A stretch of 64,000 nt of DNA. It comes from a virus. Taxonomy: Duplodnaviria; Heunggongvirae; Uroviricota; Caudoviricetes. Every line of letters starts with the position of its first letter. Position 1 is the first letter of the stretch. Positions 38,678 to 55,564 of this stretch are shown here, in pieces. Under the pieces are notes generated by a model, which was not told the DNA's origin, ran no database searches, and was given only the letters and a program-made list of their open reading frames with translations. The DNA lies in IMG/VR virus record IMGVR_UViG_2703718815_000003; one strand, written 5' to 3'. Both the position numbers and the translations under genes were made by a program.

Positions 38678-40711
38678 TTACTTAACTTGGTGGCCTGGTT
38701 TAGCACCAGCATCCGGGCTTAACAGGAAGATATCTTTTCCGCCAGGGCCAGCAGCCATCACCATGCCTTCGGAGATACCGAAGCGCATTTTACGCGGTGC
38801 CAGGTTAGCCACCATAATGGTGTGACGACCAATCAGTGCCTGTGGGTCTGGATAAGCAGAACGGATGCCTGAGAAGACATTGCGTTTTTCACCGCCGAGA
38901 TCCAGCGTCAGGCGCAGCAGTTTGTCAGAACCTTCAACAAACTCTGCGTTTTCGATCAGTGCCACGCGCAGGTCAACTTTGGCAAAGTCGTCAAAGGTGA
39001 TGGTTTCCTGAATCGGGTCGTCTGCCAGCGGGCCAGTAACTGGCGCGGCAGCTGCTTTCACTTCTTCTTTGGATGCTTCCACCAGTGCTTCAACCTGCTT
39101 CATATCGATGCGGTTATACAGTGCCTTGAACGGATTCACTTTATGGCCCAGCAGCGGTTGCTGGATACCATCCCAGGTCAGTTCTGTATTCAGGAATGCT
39201 TCTGCACGTTCAGTCAGTTTCGGCAGTACCGGCTTCAGGTACGTCATCAGCACGCGGAACAGGTTAATGCCCATAGAGCAAATCGCCTGCAGATCGGCAT
39301 CGCGTCCTTCCTGCTTCGCCACCACCCACGGAGCCTGTTCATCGACATAGCGGTTAGCCAGGTCAGCCAATGCCATGATTTCACGGATAGCTTTACCAAA
39401 TTCACGGCTTTCCCATGCTTCGCCAATCACTTCAGCGGCATCAGTAAAGGTTTTGTACAGTTGCGGGTCAGCCAGTTCGCTTGCCAGCACGCCGTCAAAA
39501 CGCTTGTTGATAAAGCCTGCATTACGGGAGGCCAGGTTAACCACTTTGTTCACGATATCGGCATTCACGCGCTGAACGAAATCCTCCAGGTTGAGATCGA
39601 TATCATCAATGCGCGAAGAGAGTTTCGCAGTGTAGTAGTAACGCAGGCTGTCAGCGTCAAAATGATTCAGCCAGGTGCTGGCTTTAATAAAGGTGCCGCG
39701 AGACTTGGACATCTTCGCGCCGTTCACCGTCACATAGCCGTGAACAAACAGGTTGGTCGGCTTGCGGAAGTTGCTGCCTTCCAGCATGGCAGGCCAGAAC
39801 AGGCTGTGGAAGTAAACAATATCTTTACCGATGAAGTGGTACAGCTCGGCGGTGGAGTCTTTCTTCCAGTATTCATCGAAGCTGGTGGTATCGCCGCGCT
39901 TGTCGCACAGATTCTTGAAGGAACCCATGTAGCCAATCGGCGCGTCCAGCCAGACGTAGAAATATTTGCCCGGCGCGTTCGGAATTTCAAAACCGAAGTA
40001 GGGCGCATCTCGGGAGATATCCCACTGTTGCAGGCCGGATTCAAACCATTCCTGCATTTTGTTCGCCACCTGCTCCTGCAACGCGCCGCTGCGGGTCCAT
40101 GCCTGCAACATTTCGCTGAAAGAAGGCAGATCAAAGAAGAAGTGTTCGGAATCACGCATTACCGGGGTAGCGCCAGAAACCACCGATTTCGGCTCGATCA
40201 ATTCAGTCGGGCTATATGTTGCGCCGCAGACTTCACAGTTATCGCCGTATTGATCTGGCGCTTTACATTTCGGGCAGGTGCCTTTTACAAAACGATCCGG
40301 CAGGAACATGCCTTTTTCCGGGTCGTACAACTGAGAGATAGTGCGGTTTTTAATAAAACCGTTCTCTTTCAGGCGAGTATAGATAAGCTCAGACAACTGA
40401 CGGTTCTCTTCGCTGTGCGTCGAGTGATAGTTGTCATAGCTGATGTTAAAGCCTGCGAAATCAGTCTGGTGTTCCTGACTCATTTCGCCAATCATCTGCT
40501 CCGGTGTGATACCAAGCTGCTGTGCTTTCAGCATGATCGGCGTACCGTGGGCATCGTCGGCACAGATGAAATTAACCTCGTGGCCGCGCATTCGCTGGTA
40601 ACGAACCCAGACATCAGCCTGGATGTGCTCCAGCATATGGCCGAGGTGGATTGAGCCGTTAGCGTACGGCAGCGCGCACGTCACCAGAATTTTCTTCGCG
40701 ACTTGGGTCAT
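38678..40711 (-). CDS. metG: methionyl-tRNA synthetase (host-type MetG)
   Basis: 677 aa from [26 protein letters not shown]; class I motifs SIHLGH and KMSKS, CPKC/CEVC zinc knuckle, C-terminal tRNA-binding domain. Matches enterobacterial MetG as I recall it, not verified by search. Confidence 0.95.
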
Positions 40712-40868
40712 AGTAGGCATTACTTCTTTGTAGTGAAAAGGGGCTTGATAGTAACAAAATGGCCTTATGTCTGCCATGTGATAACAGCATTTCTCATAAA
40801 TGATTAAATGTCGTAGCTGGAGTACACTACAAGGCGACAATTGCGCAAATTAAAATAAAGGAGACGGG

Positions 40869-41969
40869 ATGAGCGAGTCCAAATCGCCGGATGCCCTGAG
40901 AGCAATGGTAGCCGGTACGCTGGCTAATTTTCAGCACCCAACCCTGAAACACAACCTGACTACGCTTAAAGCGTTACACCATGTTGCGTTGATGGATGAC
41001 ACACTGCATGTCGAACTAATCATGCCTTTCGTGTGGAATAAGCCTTTTGAAGACCTGAAAGAGCAATGTAGTGGTGATCTGCTCCGTATCACTGGCGCAA
41101 AGGCTATTGACTGGAAGCTGTCGTACAACATTGCCACGCTTAAGCGCGTCAAAAACCAACCAGGCATTAATGGCGTTAAGAACATTATCGCCGTCAGCTC
41201 AGGCAAGGGCGGCGTGGGTAAATCCTCCACGGCGGTAAACCTGGCACTGGCGTTGGCTGCTGAAGGTGCGAAAGTTGGTATTTTGGATGCCGATATCTAT
41301 GGTCCATCAATTCCAACCATGCTGGGCGCGGAAAACCAACGTCCAACCTCACCTGACGGTACTCACATGGCACCTATCATGTCTCATGGCCTGGCAACCA
41401 ACTCTATTGGTTATCTGGTCACCGACGACAATGCAATGGTGTGGCGTGGACCGATGGCGAGCAAGGCGTTAATGCAGATGTTGCAGGAAACATTGTGGCC
41501 TGATCTGGACTATCTTGTTCTCGATATGCCGCCGGGCACTGGTGATATTCAGTTGACGCTGGCGCAGAACATTCCTGTAACTGGTGCTGTTGTGGTAACT
41601 ACGCCGCAAGACATCGCGCTGATCGATGCGAAGAAAGGCATTGTGATGTTCGAAAAAGTCGAAGTGCCGGTACTTGGTATCGTCGAAAACATGAGTGTGC
41701 ATATTTGCAGTAACTGCGGTCATCACGAGCCAATTTTTGGCACCGGTGGCGCAGAGAAACTGGCCGAGAAATACAACACGCAGTTGTTAGGCCAAATGCC
41801 ACTTCATATCTCTCTTCGTGAAGATCTGGATAACGGAACACCAACCGTTATTAGTCGTCCAGATAGTGAATTTACGGCTATTTATCGTGACCTCGCAGAT
41901 CGCGTTGCTGCCCAAATGTATTGGCAAGGTGAAGTAATACCTGGCGAAATCGCATTCCGCGCAGTGTGA
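40869..41969 (+). CDS. apbC: Fe-S cluster carrier ATPase ApbC/Mrp
   Basis: Mrp/NBP35 P-loop SSGKGGVGKS and CSNCGH motif; divergent from metG as in enterobacterial chromosomes. Confidence 0.95.
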   Translation: MSESKSPDALRAMVAGTLANFQHPTLKHNLTTLKALHHVALMDDTLHVELIMPFVWNKPFEDLKEQCSGDLLRITGAKAIDWKLSYNIATLKRVKNQPGINGVKNIIAVSSGKGGVGKSSTAVNLALALAAEGAKVGILDADIYGPSIPTMLGAENQRPTSPDGTHMAPIMSHGLATNSIGYLVTDDNAMVWRGPMASKALMQMLQETLWPDLDYLVLDMPPGTGDIQLTLAQNIPVTGAVVVTTPQDIALIDAKKGIVMFEKVEVPVLGIVENMSVHICSNCGHHEPIFGTGGAEKLAEKYNTQLLGQMPLHISLREDLDNGTPTVISRPDSEFTAIYRDLADRVAAQMYWQGEVIPGEIAFRAV

Positions 41970-52552: not shown

Positions 52553-53047
52553 TTAGTCACAGCATGATCCTGAGTAACTGGATGAACTTGAGGTATCGCA
52601 TCCACCGCCATCCCATCCAGAGTGACAGGACGCTCCACTGGAGTGGTGGTAATTGTCGTCGACGAAGGTGTGGTGATGGATGAATCCGGCATCAAAAGGC
52701 TCTGACCGGCTGGAACGGCTACCGTCGCCAGTGAAACTATAATGAGAACGTAGGCCATTGGTTTCAGCCTCTTTCTTTGAAAATTTTCCATTCGAACTGT
52801 CCTTGTTGTTTTTCTCCTTCACTAAAGGCCGTGCATTTTTCGCTTCGCGTGAAGAGCCAGAGGCAACAATCGCCCCCACGTTCGCAACAACTGACGCTTG
52901 ATTATCTAAACGTTCATTCAGCAACCGAACGGTAGTCTCTAGTTCTTCAAGGCGTGACATAACACGACCGCTAAATAATTCGGCCAAAATTTGACGTAAA
53001 GAACGAGGGCGTTTAGTTACAGAAGTGAAATAGGTTTGACGTGCCAT
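52553..53047 (-). CDS. hypothetical protein; C-terminal half low-complexity, alternative embedded ORF 52540-52791
   Basis: N-terminal coiled coil; second half Ser/Gly/His-rich; embedded out-of-frame ORF has a hydrophobic N-terminus. Confidence 0.35.
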   Translation of the reverse strand: MARQTYFTSVTKRPRSLRQILAELFSGRVMSRLEELETTVRLLNERLDNQASVVANVGAIVASGSSREAKNARPLVKEKNNKDSSNGKFSKKEAETNGLRSHYSFTGDGSRSSRSEPFDAGFIHHHTFVDDNYHHSSGASCHSGWDGGGCDTSSSSSYSGSCCD

Positions 53048-53195
53048 GTGGACTCCATCCAGTGTCAGAAAGAGTTGCGGCTGGCGATTGCCAGCCGCCT
53101 TTCTCGTTCCATCCTGGAACTGTGTCTTACCGACACATTGTCATCCTGACGCCGATAAGATACATGATTTAAAATGATAGGTAAACACTTACTTA

Positions 53196-53786
53196 CTATT
53201 TATTATAAACAAAACCAATATCTTTCTTGTGAGGCATATCTGCTGCTGAAAAAGCTGCGATCTTCGCGAGTCGATCACATATTTCATTTTCACGATGCCC
53301 GGCGTGACCTTTAACCCACTTCCAGCGAACATTATGTCGACTTGCGGCCTCATCCAGACGCTTCCACAGATCAACATTCTTTACCGGTTTTTTGTCAGAA
53401 GTCATCCATCCATTGCGTTTCCACCATTTCATCCACTGTGTCATGCCGTTTTTCAGATACTGGCTATCAGAGTGCAAAATAACGTTGCATGGATATTTCA
53501 AACGCTCCAGCCCGATAAGTGCCCCCATCATCTCCATGCGGTTATTGGTGGTGCTATGAAAACCATCTGAGAACTCGCGTTCCTCACCACGATACTGGAG
53601 AACTATACCGTAACCGCCCGGGCCACCCGGATTTTTAAGGCAAGAGCCATCACTGAAGATTTTCACGGTTTTAAGCTGGGGATTGAACTCTACGACAGGC
53701 GTTGTGGAATTGGTGCGGGGAGAATTTTTGTTTTTGGCTTTTTTGCGAGTTTTTTCTTGCGATCGGGCTGGTGTCTTCGTCGTCAT
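53196..53786 (-). CDS. rnhA: ribonuclease H (RnhA-like)
   Basis: RNase H1-like motifs [37 protein letters not shown]; start ATG 53786 with AGGAG. Confidence 0.8.
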
Positions 53787-53879
53787 ATAAACTCCTGAAT
53801 CAAGCGCCGCGCCGATTTTTTTTCCTCGCGCGTGCGCACACGCGTGCGTGTTAATAATTATTAAAATAAACAAATTACT

Positions 53880-54370
53880 TCCCAGAACAGGTTTTTATAA
53901 ACCTGAACTGAACGAACGAAGTGAGTGAAGTTCACCTCGAACGAAGTGAGAGGTTGTCTTTTCAGGTAATACTCTCCCAGGGAGGTGAGTATAAAAATCC
54001 CTCACCAACCTGGTCGTTTCATAACCTGAAAAGTTATGGTCTAAGTCTACTGCCAGCTTAGACTTGGGAAGTTATGGATGACAGCACCCCAGAACCGAGA
54101 TCTTCCCACACTTTATGAAGGGGAGTACTGGATTCAACCTCTCGAAACACCCCAGACTCGACAATCATAAAGTGACCCTTGTCTCCGCTCACTTTGGTTC
54201 CCCCTTCCCCGACACCTAAACGGCACCAGTTCTACGCTGGTAGTGAGCTTTTTTAAACCTGACGCCAGTGACGCTTACCCCCACCCATCAGGTCGAGTCT
54301 CCAGTCTACGACTGGAAACTATCAGATCTTAGCACTTACAATTCACTTTATGAATAGTTTGTACTTATCT
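53880..54370. other. about 500-bp non-coding region with direct repeats and hairpins
   Basis: cgaacgaagtgag x2, aagttatgg x2, hairpin ctaagtctactgccagcttagacttgg; no convincing ORF. Confidence 0.4.
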
Positions 54371-54371
54371 A

Positions 54372-54602
54372 TCATTGTGATTGATTATTTTCTCTACCAT
54401 GTAGTTGAACATTCAAGGCAAACACCTCATTGATCAACTCACCTAAAAGCTGTTCAACAAGTTCGCGATGCTCGCCAAGATGCAAGCACTTAATTGCCCA
54501 TTCGTACAAGTTGAAAGCCTGCTCACGATCTTTCATCATTTCACGAGCCTGGGCCAGAAAATCGCTCTCTACGAGCGCAACGACATTAGTCGGGTATGAC
54601 AT
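54372..54602 (-). CDS. hypothetical small protein
   Basis: Start ATG 54602 with AAGGA upstream. Confidence 0.45.
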   Translation of the reverse strand: MSYPTNVVALVESDFLAQAREMMKDREQAFNLYEWAIKCLHLGEHRELVEQLLGELINEVFALNVQLHGRENNQSQ

Positions 54603-54683
54603 GTTGGTTTCCTTAAAGTGGTTCATAAAATCGATTTTAAAGCGTCTGGGAAGGGGTTCTAGTGGATTCTGTAGTGATGTTCA

Positions 54684-54775
54684 GGTCTGGAGTCTCTGAT
54701 ACAAAACAGCCTGCTTCCGTATATTAATAATTAATATGTAGTTATTTATATATACAGAAGCAGGCTAATTACAGA
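54684..54775. repeat. second copy of the imperfect inverted repeat seen at 23375-23473
   Basis: Shares ggtctgg...agcctgcttccgtatat...atatatacagaagcagg. Confidence 0.5.
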
Positions 54776-54787
54776 CGCCAGAACAAA

Positions 54788-55381
54788 CTAAGCAGCCTTC
54801 TTTGATGGTCTTTTTTTCCTGATCACATTCGCAGGATCATACCCTCCCAGACTTTTCATGACGTCCAAAGGGATCTTGCTTATAGAGTGCCCAGCGTCCT
54901 GACAGAATCCTCGAAAAACAACGAGCATACTGCCACCTGGGTTGATGTTTACTTCTACCTGACCCAGATTGACGTCAGGCTCGACAAACGCTACGCGGCC
55001 ACCAGACAGAATAATCGTCTCATTCGCACACTCTGTTGCACGCTCATACCACTTTGTATCTAGGGATTGAGGAATTAGCATCACTGTTGTAACTCCGCGA
55101 GCCTGCTCACGTATAGCCGCATCAATCCAGGGGGAGATTTTGGAGTAGGGTGGATTGAGGAAGGCAATTGTACCTGGCTGTCCCCATTCAGATTTCAAAG
55201 CATCACGCTCAACGCCTATGAAATTAGGCAGCTTTGCATTGTCCTTGTTGCAGGCAACGTCAACATCAAATGTCACTCCAAGATAACGTTGAATGGCAGA
55301 AAACAGCCAGTCAGGTGTTCTCCAGAGGTCACGAAGAGAGTTGTCGCGCTTTCGCTGTTTGATTTTTTCGGCTGCAATCAT
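54788..55381 (-). CDS. phage-type N6-adenine DNA methyltransferase (Dam-like)
   Basis: WRTPDWLF N-terminus and FLNPPYS catalytic motif. Confidence 0.8.
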   Translation of the reverse strand: MIAAEKIKQRKRDNSLRDLWRTPDWLFSAIQRYLGVTFDVDVACNKDNAKLPNFIGVERDALKSEWGQPGTIAFLNPPYSKISPWIDAAIREQARGVTTVMLIPQSLDTKWYERATECANETIILSGGRVAFVEPDVNLGQVEVNINPGGSMLVVFRGFCQDAGHSISKIPLDVMKSLGGYDPANVIRKKRPSKKAA

Positions 55382-55564
55382 CTTCTTTCTCGATAGGTAA
55401 GTAAATACCTATTTTTGCATTTGATTTTATGTCTGGCAATCAAATAAAACGCGCCAGAAATGCAAACGAGAAGCTCTCTGGCGCGTTTTTGTGGTGCTGG
55501 GTATGTGATTGGCTTACCCAGCACTATAAAGCTCTCTATGGGCTTTATTTTCAGTAGGGGAACG

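Follow-up and report, generated by a model that had tools for sequence, protein, structure and literature searches.

The DNA analysed here, a stretch of 64,000 nucleotides (nt) from the IMG/VR virus record IMGVR_UViG_2703718815_000003 (hereafter the window), is, by sequence comparison, part of an Escherichia coli SSU5/pHCM2-type phage-plasmid: over the interval under study and the DNA around it, identity is 97-99% with the Escherichia phages CMS-2020a, PhiR41_1 and Cyrano, and 88% with Salmonella phage SSU5. Every gene near the interval is encoded on the minus strand. Read along that strand, a 3'-5' exonuclease gene is followed by a hypothetical gene, a Dam methylase gene (54788-55381), an open reading frame (ORF) of 76 amino acids (aa) at 54372-54602, the non-coding interval itself, and an RNase HI gene (53196-53789). 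The original prediction had marked positions 53880-54370, beside the RNase H gene, as a repeat- and hairpin-rich non-coding region that might encode a non-coding RNA (ncRNA) or serve as a regulatory or origin region. The location proved correct, while the boundaries and the neighbour needed revision: the functional unit is better placed at ~53864-54354 on the minus strand, and RNase H is one of several alternative downstream neighbours. The evidence below makes us highly confident that the interval is a structured RNA gene.

The sequence features that drew attention to the interval were readily reproduced. The 13-mer CGAACGAAGTGAG occurs exactly twice on the plus strand (53913-53950; copies at 53913-53925 and 53938-53950, 25 nt apart), reads CUCACUUCGUUCG on the RNA strand, and has no further copy in the window even when two mismatches are allowed; by our own estimate, ~0.002 such exact pairs would be expected by chance in 500 nt. 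The 9-mer AAGTTATGG is likewise present twice (54031-54039 and 54069-54077, repeat family D1), but with ~0.5 pairs expected by chance in 500 nt it is not significant alone. As had been claimed for its hairpins, the 461-nt stretch folds far more stably than dinucleotide-shuffled sequences on both strands, with values of -170.5 kcal/mol on the minus strand (z = -5.2) and -141.1 kcal/mol on the plus strand (z = -4.5) that none of 100 shuffles reached. The longest ORFs inside the interval are 30-46 aa in length and none is conserved, in agreement with the reported lack of a plausible coding sequence.

Copies of the element were gathered by exact-pattern scans of viral, genomic and metagenomic contigs, from PLSDB, and by a protein search using the upstream ORF, yielding 195 copies, of which 104 were distinct and full-length. 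When six relatives from Salmonella, Klebsiella and Enterobacter were compared, 50-nt segments over 53901-54300 were 74-100% identical (mostly 90-100%), whereas the flanking RNase H, small-ORF and Dam genes were 56-90% identical and thus less conserved than the interval between them. Over the main clade as a whole, identity is 88-100% for the RNA and 60-90% for the genes on either side. The edges of the conserved block are sharp, at ~53872 and ~54297. The RNA described here, which we designate type A, was found in 687 PLSDB plasmids from Klebsiella, Escherichia, Enterobacter, Salmonella (including one Typhi plasmid), Citrobacter, Cronobacter and other genera, and in 232 of 5,426 complete E. coli genomes (4.3%), where it is nearly always plasmid-borne and RefSeq annotates nothing. 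Elsewhere the locus carries either no annotation or a "hypothetical protein", as in the Cyrano record and many PLSDB records.

We modelled the fold on 55 distinct copies from the main clade, for which RNAalifold proposed 126 pairs. In this alignment 99.6% of 6,928 pair cells were standard and 12 pairs were changed on both sides, values that none of 500 shuffles reached. A sister clade ("A2"; L163-L167) was recovered through its upstream ORF, which shares 61-64% protein identity, and its intergenic region aligned over the whole element at ~69% identity. A curated structure of 95 pairs in 15 helices, derived from the RNAalifold model, was then scored on a nine-sequence alignment that included the sister clade: 96.9% of cells were paired, and 27 pairs showed compensatory changes. 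The covariation score was 0.359, compared with at most 0.113 when the 3' partners were slid by one to three columns, and sliding left no more than four compensatory pairs; on four of five measures, none of 500 shuffles reached the observed value. Helices H2, P3, P7, P7a, P8, P10 and P12 each contain two to five compensatory pairs and are 98-100% paired, except for H2 (89%, owing to a gap in the sister-clade alignment). Three helices of the first RNAalifold model were discarded because they were not kept in the sister clade, namely GAGC-GAGA / UCUC-GUUC, CGAGGUGA / UCACUUCG, and a closure of CUUCCCA with the 3'-terminal UGGGAAG.

The strand that folds is the minus strand. Standard pairs made up 99.85% of cells when the main-clade alignment was read as minus-strand RNA and 87.8% when it was read as plus-strand RNA, and the corresponding values with the sister clade included were 96.9% and 84.0%. 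Many A/G and C/U substitutions that affect one side of a pair can be accommodated only by G-U pairing in minus-strand RNA; since these changes and the G-U pairs fit the minus strand only, we assign the RNA to that strand. The minus strand was also the more stable by 12-29 kcal/mol in all nine lineages tested.

All elements of the predicted type A transcript (~455 nt; 53864-54320) are on the minus strand and are described here from the 5' end. H2 (54257-54293) is a hairpin of ACCUGAUGGGUGG and UCACUGGCGUCAGGU with a G-rich 5' arm, in which three pairs differ at both positions in 11 sequences of the Klebsiella lineage (AU to GC, CG to UA and AU to GC), with further compensation in the sister clade. 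In the P3 domain (54188-54247), CUCACU pairs with AGUGAG to close an inner hairpin and the run GGGGAAGGGGGAA; three of its six pairs are compensatory between the clades, with 98% of cells paired. The P4-P6 domain (54109-54174) is formed by CACUUUAUGA and UCAUAAAGUG, which close two inner helices, and contains five pairs changed on both sides, the inner helices being weaker (83-92% of cells paired). P7 pairs UGGGAAG with CUUCCCA around an inner hairpin, P7a (GGGUG / CAUCC), within 54065-54108; both are 100% paired, with three and two compensatory pairs, respectively. The rival pairing of CUUCCCA with the 3'-terminal UGGGAAG is 78% paired in the sister clade and lacks compensation there. P8 (54039-54063; GUCUAAGCUG / UAGACUUAGAC) is 100% paired with compensatory changes in five of its 10 pairs, and pair 313:335 changes from CG to UA inside the main clade. 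P9 (54020-54038; CAUAACU / GGUUAUG) includes one copy of the 9-mer repeat and one compensatory pair; a long-range competitor, in which UUUUCAGG pairs with CCUGAAAA (54031-54024 with 53965-53958), also fits the A-U to U-A swap seen in the sister clade (alignment A5 reading). P10 (53977-54013; CCAGGUUGGUGAGG / CUCACCUCCCUGG) comes next; it is 100% paired, and two of its pairs show compensatory changes.

The two clades share no longer identical stretch than the invariant core ACAACCUCUCACUnCGUUCGAGG (53935-53957), which includes the first 13-mer copy and forms P11, a 4-bp stem of CCUC and GAGG with an 11-nt loop. P12 (53904-53934) pairs UGAACU with AGUUCA, with three of six pairs compensatory and 100% of cells paired, and holds the second 13-mer copy in its loop. 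Seven nt of that copy are deleted in the sister clade, so the repeat pair is specific to the main clade. The direct repeats are a minor feature of the element, with one copy inside the most conserved hairpin and the other lineage-specific and in a loop.

The invariant 23-mer is complementary to a GAGAGG ribosome-binding site. An exact-pattern metagenome scan with it returned 56 SSU5-like loci and four unrelated contigs that match the motif only (L185, L206, L219 and L220), one of them viral-like and three from peat. The peat matches are antisense to a Shine-Dalgarno/ATG region, and in L185 the 23-mer forms an 8-bp hairpin upstream of a gene. We judged these four to be chance matches and did not take them as a wider spread of the RNA.

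The ends of the RNA are predicted from promoter- and terminator-like features at ~54320 and ~53864. Upstream, an extended -10 element TGcTAAGAT (54326-54334; -10 hexamer at 54331-54326, TG at 54334-54333) would place the start at ~54320, and a -35-like hexamer, TTCATA (54349-54354), lies 17 nt upstream of the -10; this putative -35 element was read from the sequence and is below the nine-of-12 threshold of our consensus scan. In nearly all of 32 upstream variants, representing the 195 copies, TAnnAT stands 7-9 nt before the 5' hairpin, mostly after TGn. The -10 variants among lineages (TAAGAT, TAAAAT, TACAAT, TAACAT, TAATAT and TAGAAT) form conserved columns within an otherwise variable spacer, and other lineages have TTTAAA or TTTACA at the -35 position with a 16-17-nt spacer (alignment A1). 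The 5'-terminal hairpin H1 (54298-54318) reads UUUCCAGUC-GUA-GACUGGAGA; at least nine unrelated stem sequences occupy this position and all fold, with stabilities of -4 to -19 kcal/mol across lineages and CG, UA, AU and GC pair types at 30:51 and 33:48 in alignment A3. At the other end, the terminator-like element (53864-53910; inverted repeat I9) consists of CAGUUCAGGUUU-AUAA-AAACCUGUUCUG followed by GGGAAGUAA and by a tract rich in U, UUUGUUUAUUUU (53875-53864). Its hairpin is long and imperfect (53910-53883) and can be extended to ACUUC / GAAGU. The same long imperfect hairpin precedes the U-tract in folds of 16 3'-end variants; a single lineage has a covarying stem of CAGGG / CCCUG, and one of the Klebsiella lineages has only a weak U-tract. 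Together these features suggest an RNA with its own sigma-70-like promoter and terminator.

Expression could be assessed from a re-analysis of the GSE154648 RNA-seq data set for E. coli LF82 carrying Cyrano (PMC9928086, Table 1 and S1 Table). The Cyrano genome (OV696614.1) is 97% identical to the window over the interval and annotates CYRAN_81, a 135-nt "hypothetical protein" gene, in the middle of it (window 54058-54192, minus strand). CYRAN_81 is among the few Cyrano loci expressed in the lysogen, at 12-fold over prophage background in lysogeny broth (PMC9928086). Across five conditions its log2 fragments per kilobase per million (fpkm) were 6.8-10.35, compared with 2.3-5.8 for CYRAN_79, CYRAN_80 and CYRAN_82 (Dam, small ORF and RNase H), while the repressor CYRAN_45 followed the same pattern as CYRAN_81 at 6.4-10.35 (PMC9928086). 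The centre of the interval is thus 10-35 times more abundant than both neighbours. The transcript is non-coding, because the 44-aa frame annotated as CYRAN_81 is frameshifted or truncated in 13 of the 55 distinct copies, Klebsiella lineage included, and no ORF with the same start and stop exists in both clades. Two other short "hypothetical" Cyrano loci, CYRAN_43 and CYRAN_40, are 723-fold and 15-fold over background in the lysogen (PMC9928086, Table 1) and may be further unannotated RNAs or small toxin genes.

The RNA matched no known family. A search of 53000-55500 on both strands against the 4,227 models of Rfam 15, to E = 10, gave only mir-375 inside the interval (E = 7.9; 15 bits against a gathering score of 46.7), and ARAGORN found no transfer RNA or transfer-messenger RNA gene anywhere in the window. 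The original prediction had proposed that the absence of both a transcript and a covariance-model match would speak against an RNA; an Rfam match is indeed absent, while the published Cyrano data show an abundant transcript from the interval. Since the transcript exists, the lack of an Rfam model reflects novelty and not the absence of an RNA. Our searches of the literature available to us on SSU5, pHCM2 and phage-plasmids combined with ncRNA gave no description of this RNA; a 2026 preprint on heteroresistance in phage-plasmids deals with another family, and a paper on a Klebsiella SSU5-like plasmid contains no transcriptome. We rate the RNA as a new family of a known general kind, the prophage-encoded structured ncRNA, that is unusual in its size and conservation. 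It has the generic features of an independent bacterial ncRNA gene, namely a promoter and 5' hairpin, a 3' hairpin with U-tract (both ends being predicted), covariation, and a transcript in a relative.

In most lineages the RNA lies directly upstream of the RNase HI gene, inside a block of DNA-metabolism genes. The RNase HI gene of the window (minus strand; Pfam RNase_H, E = 9e-45) encodes a basic N-terminal extension and is a variable downstream neighbour outside the RNA unit: its slot is taken by betT in Enterobacter pEh65_1 (L004), by LysR and major facilitator superfamily (MFS) genes in Buttiauxella, and by an unrelated ORF in the sister clade. The variable downstream gene speaks against the RNA being a leader of RNase H or an RNase H-dependent primer. 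In the Buttiauxella gaviniae contig (L080, 4830-6188), only the 3' 335 nt of the RNA remain, the 5' third being replaced by the end of a metallophosphoesterase gene, and the LysR and MFS transporter genes lie downstream. With this contig and the Enterobacter betT locus in view, the slot downstream of the RNA looks like a cargo-insertion hot spot.

The constant partner of the RNA is instead the upstream 76-aa ORF (minus strand; phrog_5343). In PLSDB, the ORF was detected in 728 records by tblastn, type A RNA in 687 and a second RNA, type B, in 30, and the RNA was always downstream of the ORF. An AlphaFold model of the protein contains four helices (predicted local distance difference test score, 72). 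The protein has no Pfam family, belongs to a PHROG family without assigned function, and gave no structural match in PDB or BFVD; we rejected a Rop/Rom-like partner role on the grounds that neither a Pfam family nor a PDB or BFVD match to the helical model was found. PADLOC, run on the neighbouring genes, returned defence matches only for the orphan Dam methylase and the DEDDh exonuclease, and no toxin family.

Type B candidate RNAs occupy the same slot over ~480-520 nt in 30 Klebsiella plasmids (for example Klebsiella oxytoca pCAV1099-111, L083 3226-3745; also L084, L086-L090 and L168-L170). Their architecture is that of type A: a promoter-like site immediately follows the stop codon of the ORF, the 5' hairpin covaries, and the sequence ends in a stem followed by U7. 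Among seven sequences, 17 pairs are changed on both sides. No similarity between the types was found by nhmmer or by the type A core covariance model (R1) with default filters, and with filters off the best E value was 1.7; an Rfam scan of the syntenic type B loci gave nothing relevant. We therefore rejected homology and treat type B as not detectably related to type A.

The reading that we favour, with a probability of roughly 0.6, is that the interval is an independent ~455-nt minus-strand ncRNA gene whose product is most likely a trans-acting regulatory or binding RNA of lysogeny. The ncRNA option of the original prediction is strongly backed by conservation above that of the flanking genes, by the 27 compensatory pairs, by a promoter-like site kept in position next to a covarying 5' hairpin, and by the abundant RNA-seq transcript. 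Under this proposal, a constitutive sigma-70-type promoter just past the stop codon of the 76-aa ORF would initiate the RNA at the base of a protective 5' hairpin. The RNA folds into ~14 helices, would end at the long hairpin and U-tract ahead of the next gene, and accumulates while the element resides as a plasmid prophage. Its invariant unpaired segments, foremost the pyrimidine-rich P11 hairpin, would be where it pairs with a partner or is bound by one. On whether the RNA acts in trans, we consider the odds to be even, with a role as a DNA site or as the leader of a single gene being less likely than trans action. That it works through base pairing by P11 is a tentative suggestion that we consider rather unlikely.

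Several observations weigh against this proposal. Within the plasmid (~110 kb) we found no target: the best complementary runs, counting Watson-Crick and G-U pairs, were 43, 42 and 39, compared with 45, 42 and 38 for shuffled RNA, and shared 11-mers were at chance level (12 found, 14 expected). Since no plasmid target rises above chance, an RNA target would have to be of host origin; alternatively, the partner would be a protein. Simple consensus scans for promoters and terminators called neither end, so both assignments are made at the level of consensus resemblance. The conservation could partly reflect recent recombination between lineages and not purifying selection. The 3' third of the RNA is invariant in the main clade, such that its helices depend on the sister clade alone, and there are competing pairings, namely P9 versus the long-range helix and the two copies of UGGGAAG. 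Finally, although the expression data set is strand-resolved (Fig 7 legend), PMC9928086 is silent on the strand-specificity of its gene counts.

Other explanations start from the same facts. The pairing of the small ORF and the RNA gene, which always occur together (728 ORF records; 687 type A and 30 type B plasmids), could mean that the RNA forms a ribonucleoprotein with the 76-aa protein, or that it confers specificity on a system of immunity, exclusion or incompatibility in which types A, A2 and B are interchangeable alleles at one locus. That type B has the same architecture and its own compensatory changes despite undetectable similarity to type A, and that RNA expression follows the repressor CYRAN_45, would fit such a system. 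The 76-aa protein, however, has no recognisable RNA-binding fold or family, the small-ORF mRNA is 10-35 times rarer than the RNA, the allele type just tracks overall lineage divergence, and the plasmid yielded neither a target nor an operator-like complement, leading us to regard this explanation as unlikely. A cis-acting role, either as a long leader or attenuator gating read-through into the downstream genes or as a stable processed 3' untranslated region of the small-ORF mRNA, is in our view slightly less likely again. The RNA is oriented as the whole gene block is and has its terminator-like 3' end just ahead of the next gene, and constitutive prophage promoters with early-terminated lysogenic transcripts are known: for StxS, PMC7547250 describes a constitutive prophage promoter whose transcript terminates early in lysogeny, with accumulation of the RNA. 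Yet the type A RNA is kept despite different downstream genes in Enterobacter, Buttiauxella and the sister clade, ~455 nt with 14 helices under selection goes far beyond what an attenuator needs, a promoter-like site is kept in position between the ORF stop and the RNA, and the ORF mRNA is present at far lower levels than the RNA.

Replication offers another explanation, in which an R-loop, helped by RNase H, primes or activates lytic replication in the manner of ColE1 RNA II or a T4-type origin, or in which the repeats are initiator-binding sites. G-runs on the RNA strand (GGGUGGGGG and GGGGAAGGGGGAA), the RNase HI gene directly downstream in most lineages within a DNA-metabolism block, and the direct repeat in the RNA region all agree with this idea, but three lineages keep the RNA without RNase H, the 13-mer has no copies elsewhere in the window and its second copy is not intact in the sister clade, and the substitutions preserve G-U-containing RNA helices and not DNA motifs. 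Cumulative GC skew has no turning point near 54 kb, although this is a weak test for an origin; the element has its own DnaE, primase and ligase genes, with its plasmid replicon typed elsewhere (IncFIB); and the RNA is abundant in lysogeny, not in lytic growth alone. The origin option of the original prediction thus gained no support, and we consider a replication role highly unlikely. Least probable of all, and largely refuted, is that the interval is a duplex DNA site for recombination, packaging or partition, or the small protein gene CYRAN_81. The sharp block boundaries, the downstream slot with variable cargo, and the hypothetical proteins annotated here in Cyrano and many PLSDB records could be cited in its favour; compensatory, strand-specific substitutions are unexpected for a duplex DNA site, the site is away from the ends of the SSU5 record, and the broken 44-aa frame and the lack of an ORF common to both clades argue against a peptide.

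Comparison with known systems places the type A RNA near several of them without assigning it to any. The c4 antisense RNA of P1 and P7 and the CI RNA of P4 are structured, made in lysogeny, embedded in a block of lytic orientation, and present as heteroimmune alleles in relatives; they are ~70-80 nt long, arise by processing of a leader, and act by pairing with repeats within their own transcript. The RNA of the window resembles them in life-style, as a structured RNA from a plasmid prophage in lysogeny, but at ~455 nt it is about six-fold larger, has its own predicted promoter, has no complementary target that we could find in the plasmid, and has no match in Rfam, although the library searched should include the c4 model. 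The resemblance to Staphylococcus aureus RNAIII is a general one: that RNA is of a similar size class (~500 nt), has ~14 hairpins and carries pyrimidine-rich conserved loops that could pair with ribosome-binding sites; the window RNA differs in having neither sequence or model similarity to it nor an embedded peptide gene, and in being carried by an Enterobacteriaceae phage-plasmid. ColE1 RNA II is also a structured ~500-nt transcript with G-runs, RNase H is a processing enzyme in the ColE1 system, and an RNase HI gene is often adjacent here. Unlike the ColE1 system, however, the type A RNA persists in lineages that lack the RNase H gene (Enterobacter, Buttiauxella and the sister clade), and replication of the element uses its own DnaE and primase. 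No RNA I-type antisense gene was found, as there is no conserved plus-strand promoter inside the RNA; the sole plus-strand promoter-like site (TGGAAA-18-TACAAT, 54313-54342) points outward, overlapping the 5' hairpin of the RNA in a lineage-variable spacer and directed to the small ORF, to which it is antisense.

The large RNAs ROOL, GOLLD, OLE, raiA and HEARO are similar in being structured, often phage-borne, and found by conservation and covariation before their function; the window RNA has no Rfam match, is confined to one phage-plasmid group, and is shorter than ROOL and GOLLD. Type III toxin-antitoxin ToxI RNAs consist of tandem, identical ~36-nt repeats followed by a terminator and a toxin endoribonuclease gene, and we rejected a ToxI-like RNA given only two 13-nt repeats 25 nt apart, the second partly deleted in the sister clade, a variable downstream gene and no toxin match by PADLOC. 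With lambda 6S and StxS, the type A RNA would share a promoter active in lysogeny, a stop before the downstream genes and an RNA product that accumulates; those two are short by-products of a late promoter with Q antitermination, whereas in the present case selection acts on the structure of ~455 nt, and we saw no antiterminator setting.

Phage-plasmids of the SSU5/pHCM2 type occur widely among clinical Enterobacteriaceae, and control of their lysogeny is poorly understood; SSU5-like elements spread resistance genes, according to PMC9600943. A large, constrained RNA that is present at repressor level in the plasmid state, and that current annotation overlooks, is an obvious candidate regulator, and the covariation-supported structure, the two clades and the second RNA type make its function directly testable. 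If the RNA only stabilises or terminates transcripts, its interest would be local; a role in controlling immunity, copy number or host physiology would instead make it a new type of large phage-plasmid regulatory RNA. We can also speculate, as a long shot, that interchangeable large RNAs at a fixed locus (A/A2 and B) are the specificity determinants of an undescribed RNA-based plasmid-prophage function with P11 as the recognition element, for which candidate functions include immunity or exclusion between related elements, control of copy number or of the lysis-lysogeny decision, and a decoy against host defence or an RNA-binding protein.

Three further features of the window lie outside the RNA. 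A tract of alternating pyrimidines and purines, cgcgcgtgcgcacacgcgtgcgtg (53822-53848), separates its U-tract from the start of RNase H; it is partly palindromic and gave a spurious Rfam match to a hepatitis C virus stem-loop; ACACGCACGCGUGCGC-like tracts are found 3' of the RNA in other lineages as well, and the tract may be prone to form Z-DNA or may act as an operator. A long AT-rich inverted repeat, GCCTGCTTC ... GAAGCAGGC (54708-54766), which separates the Dam gene from the 76-aa ORF, drew several spurious microRNA-like Rfam matches and is probably a terminator or regulatory hairpin. Farther away (38678-41969), a full-length methionyl-tRNA synthetase gene (38678-40840, minus strand) adjoins a gene for an Mrp/ApbC-type ParA-like nucleoside triphosphatase (40869-41969, plus strand), a pair that looks like host-chromosome cargo on the phage-plasmid.

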